A stretch of 62,479 bases of DNA, filler included, from Globobulimina sp. (lineage: Eukaryota), in the NCBI GenBank assembly GCA_003354225.1. It is 14 parts of 14 records of this genome, joined end to end, with 100 filler letters (N's around TTAATTAATTAA, not from the genome) between each part and the next. Parts side by side here need not be neighbours in the genome. Positions count along the whole stretch, not along the records: positions 13,438 to 17,810 come from PIVH01001305.1; 13 more parts are not named here. One strand, written 5' to 3'. The translations under genes and the position numbers were made by a program. The notes beneath the pieces were generated by a model. The model did no database searches and had not been told where the DNA came from. It was given only the letters and a program-made list of their open reading frames with translations. Numbering within the stretch: the stretch's first letter is position 1; every line of letters starts with the position of its first letter. Shown here one piece after another: positions 11,363 to 51,989 of this stretch.

Positions 11363-12372
11363 TCAGCCAGACGGACAAAACGTAACCGCCATGAAATTGG
11401 TAGTGCAGGCATTGTATCCGGAAGCACCGGCACCCTGATAATCATCATAGGGGAACGCATACTCCTTAACCAATCCAGCATGAATCCAGGCCGCGTACGT
11501 ATTATACGGTGCATTGCTATAAAACTTAGATGGATCGTTTTGATTCCCTGCGTTTGAGTACATTCCTCGATTTATGGCAGAACACCATTCCGGTTGTTGG
11601 CTAAACCAACCACTGCAAGCATAGCATTGCGGCGTAGTCACACCGCTTTGGCAATGTCCGTCCCGTACACATTACTGAATTGTCGAATCCAATGAGTTAC
11701 AAATCGATGCAGACGGGTTGCCTGCACATAGGGCGCCGGGCGATTGACACACTCCGTACGGCGGCGTCGATATAAAATTGGTAGGACAGCCGCTGCGGAT
11801 ACTTCCCACTCGAATTAAGCCAGAGCCTGTAACGGGAACAGAGGAGCAATCGCTGGGGTTCGCAGGGCCGATATTAACGGGCAAACCAAAGTAGTCCACA
11901 GCTGTTGGATTATAACACATTGTCTGCGGGTTATTGTTACAATGATTAATCTCTACTTTGTCGCGTTGGGTCACACCATTTAAATTTTGACCGATTGGGT
12001 TTGCCCACCACGCATATAATCTTGTTTGTAATTAAAAATATATATATACTGTACAATGAGCTGCGATTGTGCGGGTTTTAAATAATATAAAATATATATT
12101 ATAGAAAGTGTAGGTAACCTTTGTCCAGAATTGATGGGCCAGCCGGATATATCTACGATGACAGTTTGTCCACTATTCATTGTGGTTACGTGGGTTGGAT
12201 TACCTTCTGGGCCATCTACGGTTGTTCTTTGTATATACAATGTATTTGGACATCTATTTGTTACTTGGATACATGCGGAGTATGGACAATTTGCAGTTAT
12301 GTTTGGATTGCTTGATGCTGACAAAGCGATACTAAATAATAAAATAACAGCAGTCAACGTTGCAATTGCCAT
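11363..12372 (-). CDS. Secreted thaumatin-like (PR-5/beta-1,3-glucanase-like) protein with an in-frame TAA
   Basis: Signal peptide MAIATLTAVILLFSIALS; VTNRCP, YNPTAVDYFGLPV, YAFPYDD, VTFCP. Intron 12021-12118. In-frame TAA at 11674-11672 (TIQ*CVRDGHC). Confidence 0.75.
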
Positions 12373-12714
12373 GTTGTGGTGAGTATTTGTATATTTATAG
12401 GAGTTGAATACTGCTTTATGTATAAAAAACAAAGAACTTTAAAAAACAGTTTATTTCTAAACAAATTTGGATATGATATAGCTGTATGTATTCTAACAAC
12501 AGTTCTGAAACTCATTTTGTGCCATTGTGGATAACAAAAAAGTTATACTCAGTCAAAGTTTTTAAATTTGAAATGAGACTTATTTCAACTAACATGACAA
12601 AATAGACAACAAAAAACAACAACAACAATTACATGGACAAATAATGATACTGAATATGCTCTGCTGTGTTTACAAGATTTTATAATTAATTGTTGTATTA
12701 AATTGTTTGTCATT

Positions 12715-12906
12715 AAATAAAATTGATTTTATTGGATTTAGTGATTTGACAATTTAGTTATTTATGATTTATTTACTATGAGTTGTGAAATAATTTTGTG
12801 TGATTTCGAGATGACTTTGTGTGGTTTCATGAAGAAACAAACCGACTCACATATACTTTGGGTATATTGATTAGATTTATTTCATCCAATAAAATCAATT
12901 TTATTT
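12715..12906. repeat. 23-bp perfect inverted repeat flanking about 146 bp (MITE-like)
   Basis: aaataaaattgattttattggat (12715-12737) and its reverse complement atccaataaaatcaattttattt (12884-12906). Confidence 0.6.
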
Positions 12907-12993
12907 CTTTTTTTTCATTTTTTGTGTTTGGACCAATGCAGCCATTTGATTTACTATAATTAAAAAAGCAGCATCCAGCCAATGATATTGATA

Positions 12994-13123
12994 TTTTATT
13001 CAAAGCATCCTCTTAATTCACCACCCACAGCGAAGCAATCTCTGTTGAGTCTCAATTTTTATTCAAAGCATCCTCTTAATTCACCACCCACAGCGAAGCA
13101 ATCTCTGTTGAGTCTCAATTTTT
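12994..13123. repeat. 63-bp tandem duplication (2 copies)
   Basis: ttttattcaaagcatcctcttaattcaccacccacagcgaagcaatctctgttgagtctcaat repeated with period 63. Confidence 0.9.
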
Positions 13124-13206
13124 GCATTCAATTTATTTTGTAATGTTTCTAAATCATTTGCATTCAAATCGAAGTTGCTGGGATTAAATGTGTGATAACT
13201 GATAAA

Positions 13207-13337
13207 ATATGCGGGGCGTCTACTTGCAACCCTCAAACATATTTAATATAATAAATGTGATATACATATGCGGGGCGTCTATTTGCAACCCTCTCAAACA
13301 TATTTAATATAATAAATGTGATATACATATGCGGGGC
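13207..13337. repeat. 59-61-bp minisatellite running off the contig end
   Basis: atatgcggggcgtcta(c/t)ttgcaaccctc...gtgatatac; gcggggc recurs at 13211, 13270 and 13331. Confidence 0.9.
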
Positions 13338-13437
13338 NNNNNNNNNNNNNNNNNNNNNNNNNNNNNNNNNNNNNNNNNNNNTTAATTAATTAANNNNNNN
13401 NNNNNNNNNNNNNNNNNNNNNNNNNNNNNNNNNNNNN

Positions 13438-15003
13438 CTATTGTCATGACAGTTGTCATTTGATAATATAATAAATAACTGATTACAAGATAAATATATA
13501 ATATTTTTAAAAATAAAACTCACAAAATCATTCAAACTAAATGTTATTGTATTATTTAAATTGTTCATATGCAAAATGTTCAGCGTTGAATAAAAAATCT
13601 TCCAACGCATCTCTCTGCGTATCTATTTTTGTGTTTTTTGTGTAAACAGATATGTTTTGTCTGGATGATGATAAACAAGACATTGAAGCCAGAATTATGA
13701 GCAATATCTGTGAAATGGGTGACATGTTTGAAAAAGATGTTGATGAACAGAAACCTTTCAGTGCAGTGCAGAACTGCTTTAAACAGATTTATTGTGACGT
13801 TTGCGAAACAATTGGCAAATCTGACAACAATGCAAATTTGGTTAGAATGTGTGTGTTTTATCTACGAAATAATCCGTTTGTTAAAGCAAAATGGCAACAA
13901 ATACGACGTACAGCAGATATTAACAAAGCAACAACAATCAGTAATAATTTATATGTGCCAGAAAGAACTGGCAGAGTTTATTTATGTCCCCCTATCAAAA
14001 GTTGCTTGCACTGTAACTCTGATTTAAATGTAAAGAAATTATCAAAATCCATTGCATTGACGACAAATGGACCAATTCATGTACGTACATTATCGTATTG
14101 TTGCCGTAGATGTTATTCCCAAACTGGACTTGAACCACAATATCATTATGATTATTATACAAATTTACATGGTAGCAATCAACGTGTACATTATTGTGGT
14201 GATTTACATGGCGTTCAATACAAATCACTGTTTTCGCAATATCTAAACAAACACGTTTGGGTTCCGAATTTTGTGCGTGTTTCCAGAGTCAGATGGTTTT
14301 CCTGGGAATTAATGCAATTTATTTCTCATTTAATGTGTGATGGTCGCTGTTCGTATTCACGTATTAACAAAATATTACATCGGACATTATATAAAAAAAA
14401 TCTCATACAATATGCGCCATTGCAAACTGTACTGTCTGAGTTAGAAACGGATCAATTATTTCCAGTACATCACGCATGGTGGAGATTACTCAAAGTATGT
14501 ACATACGTATTGATAATTGTGGTTTATTGCCACTCATTCGCACTGCTTTAGAATAAAGCGAACCATCAACATCATACTGTTTGTTTACATATAAATCTGT
14601 GTGTTTTATATAGTTTTTTATAATGTACAAAGATGAAGAGTTTGTGCACGAGAATTGGAGGAGGGAGACATTGATACAAAGTATAAGGGATCAAAATGAA
14701 GGTGTAGACATTGTTAAAAGGTGTAGAATTTGCACCTGCTTTATGTTTATATGAATAACATTTATTTAATTAATTCACAAACATTTAAATAATTTACAAT
14801 TTTTGAAAAACAGTAAATAGCCATGACAATGGTCATGACAATTGTCATAGCAATAGTCATATCACATCAAATCACAGTGATTAATGACAATAGTCATAGC
14901 AATAGTCATAGCAATAGTCATTTGAGTCTATCAAATAGCACTTGTCACAGCCTATGTCATTAGAAATAGCAATTGTCATAGCAATGGCGTTACTGGCGTT
15001 GTA
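13438..15003 (+). mobile_element. Probable internally deleted KDZ (Kyakuja-Dileera-Zisupton)-type DNA transposon
   Basis: CxC5-like ORF flanked by inverted arrays of a 12-bp GTCATGACAATT/GTCATAGCAATA unit (13438-13459 versus 14823-14985). Confidence 0.6.
13652..14754 (+). CDS. CxC5-like cysteine-cluster protein (N-terminal part of a KDZ transposase; catalytic domain absent)
   Basis: LCPPIKSCLHC...ALTTNGP...YCCRRC...YHYDYY...RVHY...PNFVRVS..WFSWELM matches the CxC5 pattern. In-frame GT-AG intron 14495-14613. Confidence 0.7.
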
Positions 15004-15080
15004 TCAATGTCTTCTAAAGCAGGTATACAATAAAACACATATATATATATATATTTACGATGTGGTCGTAAATACATAAA

Positions 15081-17528
15081 TTACTGTTCGTATAAAAAGC
15101 AATGTAACATATACACTCCAAAGTTGTGATTGATATTATTTGGCTCCTTTTCATTCACAAAACAAACTCCACGACAAGGAATTAATGATATTGCCGGAAT
15201 TTTAGATAAGGAAAGATCTTGAAAACATGATTCAATTTTATGTAACAACGATTTTGGTTCCAATGCTTCGGAATTATAATATAATCGTAAAAATACAATC
15301 GATCTTTCTGTCCAAATTGTTGTTTTATTATCATTCGAATTCATATTTTGTTTTTGTAAAATAAATCCATATCCATTTAAATATAATATCGATTGAGATA
15401 ACGCACTTTTAATCAATGTCGATATCGTATTTGCATTCTGTTGGGTTGTCAATTCGCAAATTGATACCAAACTGCACCATTTATCATATAAATTATAAAT
15501 TGTTTTTGTTTTTACACTCAAAAAATTACCAATATAATCCTGTTTATATTCCTTACAAATTGCATAAATATCCACTTTTCGCACATCATTATGCTTCTTC
15601 TTTCTTTTAATGTGAGCATATTTTAACTTCACCTTTCTTTTTATTGCATCATTATCATTATTATCAATATTATGCATATGTTGAGCTGGAACATTTGTCC
15701 TCGAATATGGTTTACATTTGCTTTCATTCAAAGTGTTGACACAATGTTGGGTCAATGACAGTGTTTGTAATTCAATTAAAGCATGTTTTGGTAAATCAGG
15801 CACATAAATCACAACTGCATTAAAATTCAAATCAGTAATAATATGTTTAAACACTGATCGTTGCACAATGCCAAATAAATATGGATCCATTTCTTTTGAT
15901 AATGTTATGCTTTCGGACTTTTCCTCGTCATATTCATCTGTTTTTGTTTTGGGCGCAGCCAATACAAATATATTATGATGAATGACAAGTGATAAATTAG
16001 AATCAAATGAAGTTAAGACAGCATTCATATTTTTCCATGTTAAATCAATTTGTTTTTCAGGTTTATGATTTTCAATCATTTTCATTGTCGCTGGTTCTAA
16101 ACCAATAACACCTGCGGCAAATATAAATTTATTTGCAATTTTGGAAGCTTACGAGTATGGGCCAATACAATTTGGTGCCCATTCCGATATACTTTGAATA
16201 TGTAAACAATCAAAAACGTTTTTATTTATTTCATTTTGTTTTTGTGTTTTATATTTATATCCCAATGCTTCTAAACTTATTTTATGTTTATGGCTGAAAT
16301 CTAATTCACAGCAAACACGTGATGGCGGATACAGTGAATTGGTAAAATATGATTTATAAAATGTATTTATTTTAGCAAATAAAGACATATCATTTACAAA
16401 TAAATGGCAATAAAATAAATGACAAATATTTAAGTCATATTCTTTTAATTTGATTGTTAATGCATTAAATAATAAATTCATTTCCGTTTTTAAATCTAAA
16501 TCTGAAATATATTTGTTATTGATTGAGACATTTGGATGTGACACAAATTGGAATATTCCATTTTTTAAACCATAATTACAAATATTTGTAGTTTTAATGG
16601 GTTGGGGTTCATAAAATGGTTTAAAATGATCAATTTTTAATAATTTCCAGTCATCTTTCTCTTCTTTGTTATCATTATTGTTTTTATCTTTGTTTTCTTT
16701 TTCAGCGTTGTGGATATTAATATTTTTTTGCTGTTCTTGCTTGCAAACTAATGATAATTTAATGAATTTAAGATAACCAGTCGGACAAATTGGATCTTTA
16801 ACATTCCCACAAATTGATGATTCATCAATGGATATTTTAAACTGTTTAAATAACGGACAATCAATGACAAATGTTTCATATTCGCCGCCTTCTCCACACA
16901 CATTCATTCCATATAACTCTCCTAATTCAGTTAATTTATTATAGATAATAGTGTCTTGAATGGATTTGTTAATGAATTCATTTGGTAATAAACCCATCGA
17001 TGCACACTTTATTATAATTGCATCAATCTTATTACTTATCATTTCTTTTAATAATATATTTTGATCCGTTCTTTGCCAAAGATATGATAAATTCACTAAA
17101 TTTAATCTCTCACAAACAGATTCAATACGTGTTCGTTGATAATTACTTAAAATGGCGCCACTTGCTACTCCTGTAATTGCTGGGTGTTTTGTTTTTATTT
17201 CTAGTAATAAACTAAATAAATCTTCTACTTCATCCATTTTGTTTTCATTCTTATTTTCATTGTCTATATTGAAATGATTATAAGAGACGGAATGTTGTTT
17301 TGATTTTCCAAGTGTTGTTTTAAAATAAAATGGTAAATCCATTGCTTTTGCAATGAATTCAATACCATTCCAACCCACCGTTTGATACATTTCTGAATCT
17401 AATTCATCGACATCTTTTGGTGCGGGTCGTAAGTTACCAATACAGACAATATCATGTCCATATTCCACACATTTCATTACATTGTAAATAGAATCTTTAC
17501 CACCACTTAAAAGTGCAACAACTTTCAT
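15081..17528 (-). CDS. DPH6: Diphthine--ammonia ligase with C-terminal RidA/YjgF-like domains, interrupted by an in-frame TAA
   Basis: MKVVALLSGGKDS, DELDSEMYQTVG, SGAILSNYQRTRIESVC, CGEGGEYET, PPSRVC, LHIQSISEWAPNCIGPYS*A...GVIGLEP. ORFs 16149..17648 and 15081..16085 are in the same frame. Confidence 0.93.
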
Positions 17529-17620
17529 TCTGTCGGAATTTGGAAGCTTAAGTTGAAAAACTTTAACTAAGTGAAAAATAATAATTAAACTATAAAAAAA
17601 AGCACAAAACAGAACAAGAT

Positions 17621-17810
17621 TCACCAAGTTATGATATTCATAAACCAATTCGTTTTATTTTGCTTAATATGCTTTCGGACATAATATTTTCTTAATTCTT
17701 CGATTACGAACAATAAAATCATAAATGGCGTAACAGAAAACCAACATGCTAGCTCTAATGGTTGTGTTCCAAATATATTCTGCAATGCTGGTTTCTGCAT
17801 CACGAAGAAA
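17621..17810 (-). CDS. C-terminus of a P-type IIC (Na+/K+- or H+/K+-like) ATPase alpha subunit
   Basis: PALQNIFGTQPL...PFMILLFVIEELRKYYVRKH...NWF...W* resembles the last TM segments and tail of P-type II ATPases. Confidence 0.7.
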
Positions 17811-18031
17811 NNNNNNNNNNNNNNNNNNNNNNNNNNNNNNNNNNNNNNNNNNNNTTAATTAATTAANNNNNNNNNNNNNNNNNNNNNNNNNNNNNNNNNN
17901 NNNNNNNNNNATATTCATATGTAACCCCTCAGAAACTGTTTGCTATCGCTTTGTGTTGGGTTTGTTCTGTAAACACAACAAGTATATCAAAAAAAACATG
18001 CTAATGTCTATGACGCATAGCTAAATGATGC

Positions 18032-35798: not shown

Positions 35799-38700
35799 AA
35801 ACATACACAGTCATTGCATTATGGGCAAGTTGGTGGTGGTCAATTATTATTAGACCATAACGCCACCATTAAAGCCCTCAAAACACCGACATGGAATAGA
35901 AACATTTGGTGATTTGGCCCAAATGCATAAAAATAATACAAAAAGTAAATAATACATAAATGATTATAAGTTATATAAAAGGGAGACTATGGAGTGGAAT
36001 ACAGTGAATTTGGATGCATTTGGATGAAATATTGGTGAATGGCTATGTAAAGGTCTTATTGGTGGTGAATTATCATCAAAATCACCAATACCAACAAACA
36101 AACCGCACAGAAACACATTGACATTGTATTTATTGTAAAAAATGTAAATATTTATTGTGTTGTTCTTGGAAACACTTAGAAACAGTTAGAAACACTTAGA
36201 AACGCGTACCTATGTTCTTATGTGCATACATGTCTATTTACACTATGATATTCCAATGCATTTTCACCATATGGTTTCTACACTGACATGATTAAAGATG
36301 TTCGTAGTTTTTTCCAGTGAGTCCAGTTTTTAGCTGCAAATTTCAAATGGCGCTTAAGTTGAATCCAACCGTTATCGAACCAGGGAGATTGATGGGCTAC
36401 AATAGCATTCATTCAGTGTTGAATACCATAACATTAGCTGTGATTAACAGCATTAACTATTCTGAGTTGCGTGTTGTTTTAAATTAATATAAATATGTTC
36501 TTAAATAGATTAATAGATCAAAAATGGATGTTATTGATATCGATGAATTCGGTGATTCGGAAGCAATATCAGTGCGTAAATCATTAAATGAATTATTTAT
36601 CATTGCTCCTGTAATAACAACTGGATTATCTGATTGCTGGTCAGAATTAAATCAATATGTATTGGAAGGTTGTGTTCCTGTATCTACTTATGATAAAAAT
36701 GAAATTTATTATTGTTTATGGCCTAACGATGATGGTTCTTTTTCCACTGTTTATTATCCTGCATATTATCGAAAACACACACAACAACATACTACTTTAC
36801 AATACGTCAAACACTCCGAACAAATATCAATACCAAATAAAACTATAATATCACAGTTTCATGTACCTACTATTATTAAAAGAATTGCTGTTGTCAACAG
36901 TACACCGTACACTTTGTATGTTTTCCCCAAACTTGGAAAACAATCCGCAAACTTGGAAAACAATCCGATTTGGAGTCATATGACGAAGCATTATATGACA
37001 AAGAAACGGCTCGTTTTGCAACAGCACTATCTGCTGCTGATCTTGTGACTGAGTTAGACGAAGTAAACGAAAATGCTGCAAAACTTCCGCTAGAGACAAA
37101 GGAAGGAAAATATACAAAGCAGACTTTTGCAGGTCTCGACTGGGAGTATAAACCCATATTAGTTTCTATATCATCTGATTGGTTAAAAAATAATGTTTTT
37201 GATATTATAGAAACGGAGAGTGAATATAAATATTATTTCAAACAACCTACACGCCAATCAACACAACGACTGTTAACAAAAATACAATCTACACAAATTT
37301 ATAAAGATATTTTCAAACATATACCATTAGGAATAAGAACTGATCCATATTTTGCTCAAGGATCCGGTCTTAATCATATCACTGTATATTATTATTGCAT
37401 GCATCGACGAGATATGTGCAATGTTAGATTTCGTGGATATATTAATATGAATGAAGTGATTTATGATTCATATTCGGAGATATTATTAAAACCAATAAAT
37501 TATCCTTGTATCCATATAAAAGGTCGCATTGCTGGCTGTATCCGCGCTGAAGAAAGGACTAATTTTATTTCACATAAGCCACCAAGGATTCAGTTCAATG
37601 ATGCATTACATGATAATATAAATAACCAGCAGCACTTATATGGCAATTATAATAATTCCTTGAAATCCATCGGACAAAGTCGGCGCATAAAACATGTCAT
37701 AAGCAAAGATAGATTCATTCCATTAAATAATCGATGTTTAAGCTAAAACTGTTAATGCTAAAACATGTGATAATGATATTATTGCTAAAACTGTTAATGA
37801 AATAACTATTTTGCAGGACAAGTACCAATTGGAAGAGATACAGACATTAGGATCGAAAGCAGATTGTGTTGATCAGGATGATTTAGGTTGGATTCATTCG
37901 TTGATTGCAAATATTCCATCCGGTGCAATATATCATTTCTCCGCATTAAAAATATATGCAAAGTTATCTCGCAAGCGGTGTATTCCATTGTATATTGATG
38001 ATATCAGTAATTTGGTGTTGGAAGTATATGGAAGGCGTATATTGCATTCTATAATATGGATGAGAGATCCATCAGGCTGTGCTCCAATACCGTTGGCTGA
38101 ATTTTTCTGTGGTAATTGGAAAAGTAAATATTTTGGTGATGCGTTTCAAAGGTACTTCACAGTTTTTTCATACATGTTTATGTTTATGATGGCTTGGCTT
38201 AACTTTGTGTTTATGTTTGTGGTGATTTCTATTTATTTGTTCATCAGATTTAACGACGATTTGGAGATTAATGGTGAAGTGCGTATTGATGTTTTTGTTA
38301 TGGATAATTACACGGGTTTTATCAAACGTATTATTCGAGTCAGAAACGGAATGTCTGTTCCGCAATATTATCAAAGAATGATTGATATTATTGGAAAATC
38401 GACACAATGGCCAAGAACATTAGTGTCAAGATGTCAAAACCATACAACACATGATATATGCCAGTATTATAAGAACGCACCGAATTGTAAATCGCTTATA
38501 AAAAATATGTGGATAACATTGAAAACAACAACATCGCATTCACATTGGTTAGCTGTTATATCATTTTTATTTTATATATCATCAAATAAACGAATTTTTG
38601 TTCAATCGAACACAATAAATATGATTGATCCATTTATTAATGTAAAATTTGATATGTACAAATTATTTGAAGAGTAAAAAACAACAACAAATAACACTGC

Positions 38701-40165
38701 TATGTTGGGAGATATGTTGGGAGATATGTTGGAAGATAATAAACAAGAAATAATATTAAGTAATGATACTATTACAATTTATCCAATCATTGGAACCAAT
38801 ATTATTTCATTGACTATTGATAAATATGCTATAAATGGAGTTAAATATGTCACAATCGATTACGGATTATCTCAAGCTATAATTTCGTATAACACCGATG
38901 ATTCATTTGCATCCATAATGTTTAATATAGAGAGAAAGTCCGCAAATTTAAAAGAATATGCTTGGGATAATATATTTAAATGGTATGGTTCATATGCGGC
39001 ACAAATTTTTAATAGATTTTCGGATAATGTCACAGATAATGGCAGATCTGAAAAAGGAAATGGTTTTCGCAGATCTGAATTGGGAAAGACAAAAGGCACA
39101 CCATCACTGAGTGTATATATAGCCGATGTAAAGGAAATAATGGAAAAAAGAGTTGCAATTTTAGTTCCATCATCAAAGTGTACACAGAGTCAAGATATTG
39201 GTAAAGCTTTGACGTTGATGGCTGGATATAAAATGAAACAAAGGGTATATGTATTGGATGAGACTGAAAAATTGATAAACAAGCAAATGATTGGAGCTAT
39301 TGAACATTTACAACAATTGGTTACTGCAGAAATTAATATTAATGACAAAAAAGTTATTCAAAGGAGTTTAATGAAATTTAAAAAAAAGAAACAATTGATT
39401 TTATTTGAGAATTGTGGTGATACAACAATGGTAAAGCATGTATCTAGTATGATATCAAGAGATAAACCAAAGCATTGGAGTAAGAATGATAAATATCATC
39501 AATCTGTTTTAAAATGGATAAAAAAAGCGAAAAAAATACAAACAAAGAGAAAAGCTAAACGTTTCTTGTGTATAAGCTAATGCCAATGACATCCGCTATT
39601 TAAACTGCACTTTCTGCGCAATGAACTCATTGAAATGTCACTTAAGTCAAAGTCTTTTTTTTTTCATCATGAAACTGATAGTCACAATGGTCACAATGGC
39701 GTCGTTTCCGTCGAAACATTGGAATCACAATGGCGTAGGCATTATGTGGGATCTTTGGAATCAAAATCCAAATTATTATGGTATTATGGCTTGAATATAA
39801 CATCTCTTATAAGTCACAAGTGCTCTGCAATGTGTAGCATCACTCAGTCGCCACGAGCATCATACCCTCGCGTGATATCCCTTTATGAACAACAACTCCC
39901 TGCAAAAATTCAAAGACCCAATCACCAATCACCAGATTAAAGACCCTATCACTGAAACAAAACAAAAACGAAATAATAACAATACCGATAGGTATTGCAC
40001 TGTGTTAAGTGTTATTTATTGTATACGATTTTGATAAAATGCAATAAAACATACACAGTCATTGCATTATGGGCAAGTTGGTGGTGGTCAATTATTATTA
40101 GACCATAACGCCACCATTAAAGCCCTCAAAACACCGACATGGAATAGAAACATTTGGTGATTTGG
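35799..40165 (+). mobile_element. Circularly permuted 4,248-bp unit carrying a Mutator/NOF-FB-like DDE transposase
   Basis: The first 119 bp (35799-35917) equal the last 119 bp (40047-40165). One transposase-like gene occupies most of the unit. Confidence 0.7.
36524..39580 (+). pseudogene. Disrupted Mutator/NOF-like transposase with introns
   Basis: YYYCMH...C...CIH Zn-finger-like region; LYIDD, PIPLAEFF, FVMDN, SRCQNH (CxxH), NGRSEKG. Intron 38152-38247 and an acceptor near 37816. A 20-bp tandem duplication (36928-36967) shifts the frame; in-frame TAA at 38675-38677. Confidence 0.65.
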
Positions 40166-50769: not shown

Positions 50770-51989
50770 TCAGTTACCTTCATACAATGGTTTCACTTTT
50801 CTATCCTTTGTGGACTCCTCAAATGCTTGCAATGCTCTGTTCTTATCGTTTGATCCGATTGTAACTAAATATTCCCGTCTTTCTACATCCAATGCATCCA
50901 TAAAATTACCCATTTGCATTCCTTTATTTATCGCTTGTTTGGCAGCTTTTAAAGCCAGCGGTCCAGTCTCCAACATTTTTCTTGCATAATCCAATGCAAT
51001 ATCCATTGAACTAACTATATTTACAAAATTTAAAAATATCTTTTTTGAGCTATTGATGCATTGATTATAAAATAAATCCGATATTATATGTATCATAATA
51101 AATGTCTGCAGTATAAAATTATAAATCACAACAGCCACAATTTTTGATATCCAACAGCCCAAAATTATCAGTTTTATACTGTAGACAAAAATTAAATATT
51201 CCATTAACATCCCAACGCATATTGCCAAAAGCTCAAAAAAAAACATTTTTAAATTTTATATTGCACCTTGGTCTGTTTTCGCATTTATTAATCCAATTCG
51301 ATATGCTTCATTTGCATCGATCATATTTCCTGTCATAATCATTTCCTTTGCATATGGTATCCCAATCAAACGAGGCAATCTTTGCGTGCCTCCAGCACCG
51401 GGAATTATGGCCAATTTAGTTTCAGTTAATGCAAACTGGGCATTGCAACCAGCAACGCGAATATCTGCAGCCAATGATAGCTCACAGCCACCGCCCATTG
51501 CATAGCCATCCACGCAGGCAATTACTGGCTGAGGCAATGCTTCCAATCCATTTAATACTGCACGTATTTTATCCACAAAGTTGCATATTTCTGATGTTGT
51601 TGTCATAGCTTTGCGTTCTTTTAAATCAGCACCGGTACAAAAAGCCTTTTCCACTGCGCTGTTTACAATAACTACACGACAGTCGGTGAGAGGATTGCTG
51701 TTTATCTCATCAATGCTGGCAAGAAATTCATTGATGAGATTTTGGCCCAATGCATTGTACGCTTTTGGTCTGTTCATTGTGAACAATACAATTCCATGGT
51801 CGTCTCCTGTCAATCGACTTAGTATCACCTCTTTTGTTGGTTGGGTCTTGGAAGTTTGACAGTTTGTGGTGAGTGACATATACCTGTTTTAAAGAGAACA
51901 AGTACCGAGAAAATGCGTAATGATTGAAAACGTGATAAGTGTGTGCTGTGCGCATATTTTGTGATTTGTTTGGCAGTTCGAACTAACAT
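50770..51989 (-). CDS. AUH: Mitochondrial methylglutaconyl-CoA hydratase-like enoyl-CoA hydratase
   Basis: Presequence MLVRTAKQITKY...; FCTGADLKER, GGGCEL, ETKLAIIPGAGGTQRLPR, GPLALKAAK.AI. Introns 51847-51905 and about 51014-51266. Confidence 0.88.

Follow-up and report, generated by a model that had tools for sequence, protein, structure and literature searches.

This locus raises the question of how an in-frame TAA comes to occupy the place of a near-invariant glutamine in DPH6 (diphthine--ammonia ligase), a gene that is itself already known: through a lesion or a base error, through U-to-C editing of the mRNA, through reading of UAA as glutamine, or through an intron, a gene split or foreign DNA. 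The window, by which we mean the whole stretch of DNA analysed (62,479 nucleotides from Globobulimina sp.), consists of contigs of approximately 4.4 kb joined by N44-TTAATTAATTAA-N44 linkers, 13 in number (for example, 17811–17910). Since these linkers are artificial, neighbours across a linker are not real neighbours. The TAA is very probably a sporadic CAA>TAA lesion, real null allele and base error being taken together.

The DPH6 gene and its internal stop codon

The assembly searched (G000) comprises 70.2 Mb in 48,370 contigs, one of which carries DPH6 with the following features:

13438–17810 (no strand assigned), contig of DPH6 (G000:C1305), 4,373 bases, bounded by artificial linkers (contig match)
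15081–17528 (minus strand), DPH6 coding sequence, intronless, 815 codons plus stop if read through (homology)
16815–17528 (minus strand), N-terminal diphthamide synthase (adenine nucleotide alpha hydrolase) domain, residues 1–238, intact (PF01902, E 2e-31)
16305–16508 (minus strand), first YjgF/RidA-like domain, residues ~341–408, upstream of the stop (PF01042, E 1.7e-4, under the curated cut-off)
15948–16178 (minus strand), second YjgF/RidA-like domain, residues 451–527, its GPYSQ motif cut by the stop (PF01042)
16149–16151 (minus strand), in-frame TAA, DPH6 codon 460; CAA (Gln) in runs X2, X3 and X6, TAA in X1
15084–16148 (minus strand), open frame after the stop, 355 codons, with no sign of decay (identity to relatives)
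15081–15083 (minus strand), normal terminal TAA, near where the proteins of close relatives end

Judged by its sequence, the gene is an ordinary foraminiferan DPH6 in the standard code. It possesses the sequence features of a DPH6, whose predicted activity would be the amidation of diphthine on eEF2, namely an N-terminal ATPase domain with GEGGEYE and, as expected of non-mammalian eukaryotes, two C-terminal YjgF/RidA-like domains (the first weak), and the second YjgF/RidA stretch also matches solved RidA chains, e.g. 5hp7 (E 4.9e-9). The domain order (ATPase, two YjgF/RidA-like) and the length class are those of other eukaryotic DPH6 proteins, such as yeast Dph6/Ylr143w and those of Bolivina argentea and Nonionella stella, with which it also shares the invariant motifs WAPxxIGPYSQ and CGEGGEYE; in the alignment, the latter is invariant in DPH6 and its close relatives. 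The five closest proteins are 57–75% identical to DPH6, the named foraminifera among them being B. argentea (75%) and N. stella (65%). In contrast to these proteins, the window copy carries the TAA in place of the GPYSQ glutamine, and its product would stop at residue 459.

The minus strand at 16166–16143 reads ATT GGC CCA TAC TCG TAA GCT TCC and, counted from the ATG at 17528, the internal TAA is codon 460 of 816. It splits DPH6 into a frame ending in IGPYS and a 355-codon frame starting with ASKIANKF. Glutamine is found at this column in 119 of the 120 listed homologues (histidine in one), and IGPYSQ is present in all five close DPH6 relatives. The in-frame TAA at the conserved Gln of IGPYSQA, reported in a preliminary description of this DNA, is thus confirmed, and the frame indeed stays open for 355 further codons, to the TAA at 15083–15081. 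That description had called the sequence after the stop RidA-like, which is correct for approximately residues 461–527 only; the C-terminal region beyond approximately residue 527 is conserved in relatives and is not RidA-like. Identity to the four full-length close relatives is 51–62% over residues 461–815 and 52–68% over residues 300–459, and GC3 is even, at 0.19 before the internal stop and 0.22 after it. Since the part behind the stop is not decayed, the lesion, if real, would be recent. Codon use for Gln in DPH6 is CAA 23 and CAG 5.

DNA and protein searches of G000 both indicated that DPH6 is a single-copy gene; the intact second copy considered in the preliminary description was not found by either. 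A pattern for the GPYS-Q/stop motif was uninformative (36 matches versus 70 in the control), and none of 67 pattern matches to related DPH6 DNA in metagenome contigs was confirmed. In the library of papers searched, nothing was found on foraminifera and diphthamide.

Three further features were noted on the same contig. In a 301-codon frame adjoining DPH6 (13646–14551, plus strand), the CxC5 cysteine cluster of KDZ transposases was matched weakly (E 0.011, below cut-off), a 12-nt tandem repeat of 8.8 copies lies downstream of DPH6 at 14816–14921, and a 45-nt piece just past the DPH6 stop (15011–15055) has an exact second occurrence on G000:C19102.

Haplotypes at codon 460 and the origin of the stop

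Seven sequencing runs from three studies contain the contig or part of it, and four of these (X1, X2, X3 and X6) were compared over 15600–16700, as assembled contigs rather than raw reads. In its two main pieces X1 is identical to the window throughout, TAA included. The plus strand at 16151 is G, giving CAA, in X2 (depth 8.7; same sample as X1), in X3 (from the second study, unbroken over the whole stretch at a depth of 13.7) and in X6 (third study), the last at a depth of 2.8, and below 5 a single contig may be wrong. Codon 460 is therefore CAA in the contigs of three of the four runs compared, which gives the letter of the species only if these runs show genomic DNA. Those that read CAA are 97–99% identical to the window. 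The preliminary description had asked whether reads would mostly show CAA; at the level of contigs, they do. The stretches without cover in X1 (16058–16139) and in X6 are no evidence in themselves.

At five sites, the window stands apart from all other runs with cover: 16151, 16667, 16670, 15677 and 15700. On the mRNA strand, the changes from window to the other runs are 16151 T>C, 16667 A>G, 16670 A>T, 15677 A>G and 15700 G>T. Those accompanying the stop are:

16667 and 16670 (no strand assigned), two window-private missense substitutions in a variable linker; X2, X3 and X6 agree on the other letter
15677 and 15700 (no strand assigned), two window-private missense substitutions; X2 and X3 agree on the other letter, X6 being without cover

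The window is a distinct haplotype, with five private changes of mixed type that include the stop. Four of the five are not of the U-to-C type, so an allele difference is needed in any case and explains the fifth (16151) as well. With CAA in three of the four runs, and TAA only one of several changes private to a haplotype, the lesion or error listed first in the preliminary description is the option best borne out; the stop would have arisen by a single C>T transition (CAA>TAA), private to the haplotype shown by the assembly. The five private changes, all missense or nonsense, compared to one in X2 might suggest relaxed selection on the window haplotype, but the difference (p = 0.22) does not permit this claim, and the differences of X3 are likewise mostly missense.

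The kind of each run matters here. None of the seven is recorded as RNA, which points in neither direction. The longest record in X1 is 98 kb, as against 11.9–14.0 kb in X2, X3 and X6, and the X2 contig projects onto 15075–17522, the limits of the DPH6 coding sequence. Judging from these record lengths and contig limits, X2, X3 and X6 may be transcriptomes and X1 DNA. The RNA-like runs would then read CAA and the DNA-like run TAA, which is formally the pattern that RNA editing predicts.

Our inclination is, by a little, towards a real and recent null allele existing beside working alleles. Translation of its mRNA would end 1,066 nt before the normal stop. Transcripts with premature stops are degraded by nonsense-mediated decay, and the mRNA of the null allele is probably degraded too; this would explain why only CAA appears in the RNA-like runs. 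Any product would be a 459-residue protein containing the ATPase domain and the first YjgF domain, without the second. Against a lesion of either kind stand the possibility that all CAA runs are RNA, the lack of an intact second copy in G000, and the price that a homozygous stop could carry. According to passages of PMC3585130, yeast Dph6/Ylr143w needs its YjgF domains, loss of the YjgF region abolishing function, while human DPH6, which is without YjgF domains, still complements. It is because yeast needs these domains that a homozygous stop could be costly.

It is possible, as a tentative second form of the lesion reading, that TAA is absent from living cells, being a C>T error of amplification, DNA damage or sequencing that was taken into the consensus where depth was low. 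In X1, the contig with the TAA has a mean depth of 6.5 and ends 11 nt away, where an 82-nt hole (16058–16139) adjoins it, and every other covering run reads CAA; in addition, chimeric contigs in the assembly (L231) suggest that the material was amplified. On the other hand, TAA is found both in the assembly and in the separately built contig of X1, and the four other private changes lie well inside X1 contigs, which makes X1 a distinct real haplotype. The hole itself may be a short record removed by filtering (142 nt at a word length of 31), the minimum length of X1-type contigs being, as we assume, 150 nt. The first X1 piece ends exactly before 16058, a site variable in X3, which hints at a haplotype branch rather than a gap in cover and weakly suggests that X1 contains a second haplotype. 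Whether allele or error, codon 460 would not be recoded.

RNA editing, recoding and other explanations

U-to-C editing, by which a PPR-DYW deaminase would restore the genomic TAA to CAA in the nuclear mRNA of DPH6, was among the options of the preliminary description and appears highly unlikely. The one DNA-like run with TAA and the three RNA-like runs with CAA (kinds judged as above) agree with it, and the CAA runs may all be RNA, but they represent haplotypes other than that of the window, so that the comparison is between alleles and not between DNA and RNA of the same allele. The allele differences make an extra mechanism unnecessary. Furthermore, in the close relative P0004 the residue is Gln, on a contig of 10 kb that is probably genomic, and the other exonic stops of G000 at Tyr and Ser columns (see below) are not restorable by U-to-C change.

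On the side of editing, G000 has 34 DYW-domain matches, none of which contains a stop. Among the 26 inspected (L255–L280), five have HAE at the active site, which is typical of U-to-C DYW:KP enzymes (PMC9478123), while 20 have HSE and one HGE. Twelve of the 26, the best ones, are canonical and end in DYW-like triplets; the 14 divergent domains have HSEKK or HAEKK/HAEKR and short Cys-rich tails. From the portions of PMC9478123 that bear on this, the HAE residue is not decisive for the direction of editing, designer DYW:KP proteins in human cells carry out U-to-C editing of mRNA, and DYW:KP proteins prefer a pyrimidine at -1 and a purine at -2, a purine at -1 or a pyrimidine at -2 lowering editing. 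The DPH6 site goes against this preference at both positions, with a G at -1 and a C at -2. Natural DYW:KP proteins are known from the organelles of hornworts, lycophytes and ferns (PMC11845758, in part). The likeness to these systems is in the type of change (UAA to CAA) and in the PPR-DYW deaminases encoded, some with HAE (PMC9478123, PMC11845758, both in part); the differences are that DPH6 is nuclear, that its -1 and -2 bases are disfavoured, and that the DYW domains here are only candidates for the KP type. In the library searched, nothing was found on foraminiferan DYW editing, the one match on foraminifera, RNA editing and DYW concerning Physarum, and for U-to-C editing the matches listed included organelle papers.

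Exceedingly improbable is the reading of UAA as Gln, whether through a suppressor tRNA or through readthrough that depends on context, for which Condylostoma and Blastocrithidia, with their context-dependent UAA/UAG=Gln codes (PMC10127745, in part), are the models. The stop does fall exactly on a near-invariant Gln with the frame intact behind it, and as in those codes TAA also serves as gene end. In those codes, according to the same passages of PMC10127745, stop codons are frequent at Gln columns genome-wide, whereas G000 yielded no clear case among approximately 3,070 Gln; and, unlike in those codes, other haplotypes of DPH6 have CAA. The recoded stops of radiolarian mitochondria (PMC10127745, in part) have no bearing on a nuclear gene, and the portions of PMC11980380 consulted are silent on stop reassignment in foraminiferan nuclei.

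The count comes from four conserved families in G000, comprising 137 kinase, 150 of 163 Ras, 130 kinesin and 44 DEAD matches. These 461 matches correspond to 82,630 codons, some of them intronic, and to the approximately 3,070 Gln above by the share of Gln in clean matches. Stops occurred in 59 matches, all of which were inspected by eye, with profiles of clean copies as the reference: 49 were intronic, one lay in a foreign chimeric piece, three were unclear and six were exonic. Two of the unclear ones are at match edges, and the third, at a contig edge, is a TAG either at a Gln column or in a splice acceptor. Over the whole sample, TAA or TAG at conserved Gln columns thus amounted to no clear case and one ambiguous one.

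The six exonic stops are diverse. The locus L062 (G000:C8396:1301-2116), presumably a G-protein-coupled-receptor-kinase-like gene, has one TAG at a Tyr/His column before the RDLK motif in a contig of 46% GC; L223 has TAG at Ser plus a further TGA and a frame change; L192 (C28580) and L199 (C136) have TAA at variable columns where paralogues carry many residues; and L075 and L163 have TGA at variable columns. Two of the six loci are decayed kinesin copies. The preliminary description had asked whether internal stops align to random residues, and in this sample the residues are indeed mixed. The rate is 5–7 exonic-stop loci per 82,630 codons (approximately one per 12,000–16,000), a figure that counts the best candidates only and may be low. 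The expectation is then approximately 0.05–0.07 per gene of DPH6 length, so a single case in the 62-kb window is close to the background level.

TAA, the commonest frame-ending stop, ends 11 of the 17 long frames counted in the window (some of which end in introns), and also ends DPH6 where its relatives end. Together with the six exonic stops in 461 matches, this bears out the earlier statement that TAA ends many genes here and that internal TAAs are rare, and, with no stop-to-Gln signal in those matches, the judgement that full reassignment is unlikely.

All three exonic TAAs (DPH6 16152–16149, L192 and L199) follow G, compared to 54 of 264 CAA codons in the window (20%), and two of the three read GTAAGC, a donor-like word; this observation, which counts among the points against the lesion reading, is post hoc with n = 3. 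Elsewhere in the window, two long same-phase frames at 37742–39580 (plus strand) have a TAA between them at 38675–38677, with no Pfam family spanning it, and may be two genes. At 51256, an enoyl-CoA hydratase gene has a TAA within a stretch that looks like an intron.

Decoding components were searched for in G000. No tRNA-Gln(UUA) or tRNA-Gln(CUA) was seen among 57 Rfam and 27 pattern matches (control 22), in searches that scored 63 of 4,169 candidates, so that context-dependent UAA=Gln, also proposed earlier, is unsupported by these incomplete searches as it is by the Gln columns. Four tRNA-like elements, L086 (C19897), L090 (C13801), L091 (C15869) and L114 (C7300:155-223), pair well in the acceptor, D and T arms, but their anticodon arms are irregular and their D-loops lack GG. 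Two of these (L086 and L114) have UUA in the anticodon loop region, which would favour readthrough; besides these irregularities, they do not resemble the tRNA-Gln(CTG) fragment (L129) found in the same searches. Canonical eRF1 was not found in the G000 searches: PF03463 led to Pelota only, and TIGR03676 to four divergent copies below cut-off. One divergent eRF1-like piece (L100; G000:C1714:686-1210) has TAG at the Gln of the GGQ motif with a frame change directly after it; the other three are further divergent eRF1-like pieces.

It is scarcely credible that an intron contains the TAA, or that the stop is the natural border between two genes, a short DPH6 and a RidA-like one. The GTAAG at 16152 resembles a donor, and 15 GT/GC-AG pairs (21–147 nt) would drop the stop and keep the frame; all 15, however, delete all or part of the invariant WAPxxIGPYSQ. 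The AG acceptors within 200 nt of this GTAAG would give introns of 5, 41, 56 and 62 nt, all frame-breaking; the preliminary description was right about the last three and had missed the 5-nt case. X2, X3 and X6 run through the site without a joint, and there is no joint in any of the four runs. A split could be compared to the DPH6 of mammals and archaea, which is without YjgF domains (PMC3585130, in part), but the stop interrupts a domain, through which the five close relatives read without a break. Intron and split alike are largely refuted by the unspliced CAA contigs.

Finally, the chance that the DPH6 stretch is foreign DNA from a TAA/TAG=Gln organism in a chimeric contig is practically negligible, for although such a piece exists elsewhere in G000 (L231), DPH6 shows 57–75% identity to foraminiferan-type proteins both before and after the stop, contains a single internal TAA versus 28 CAA/CAG codons, has an even GC3, and is read as CAA at this site in runs 97–99% identical to it. 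In L231 itself (G000:C23254), an AT-rich (~30% GC) Ras-family gene passes at ~850–1110 into a piece of 50–58% GC that reads as a coiled coil with four in-frame TAA/TAG codons; the contig is probably a chimera, its GC-rich piece coming from foreign DNA that uses TAA/TAG=Gln.

Meaning for DPH6 and for the assembly

Read as a sporadic lesion, the stop matters little, being a nonsense allele or a base error in a known housekeeping gene. This fragmented assembly contains both sporadic exonic stops and probably foreign TAA/TAG=Gln pieces, and either is able to mimic recoding. Were editing true, it would represent natural U-to-C editing of a nuclear mRNA outside plant organelles, in a rhizarian, and would gate a translation-fidelity enzyme. 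If, instead, the allele is real and also homozygous, it would show, as an experiment of nature, whether the second YjgF domain is dispensable for DPH6 function.
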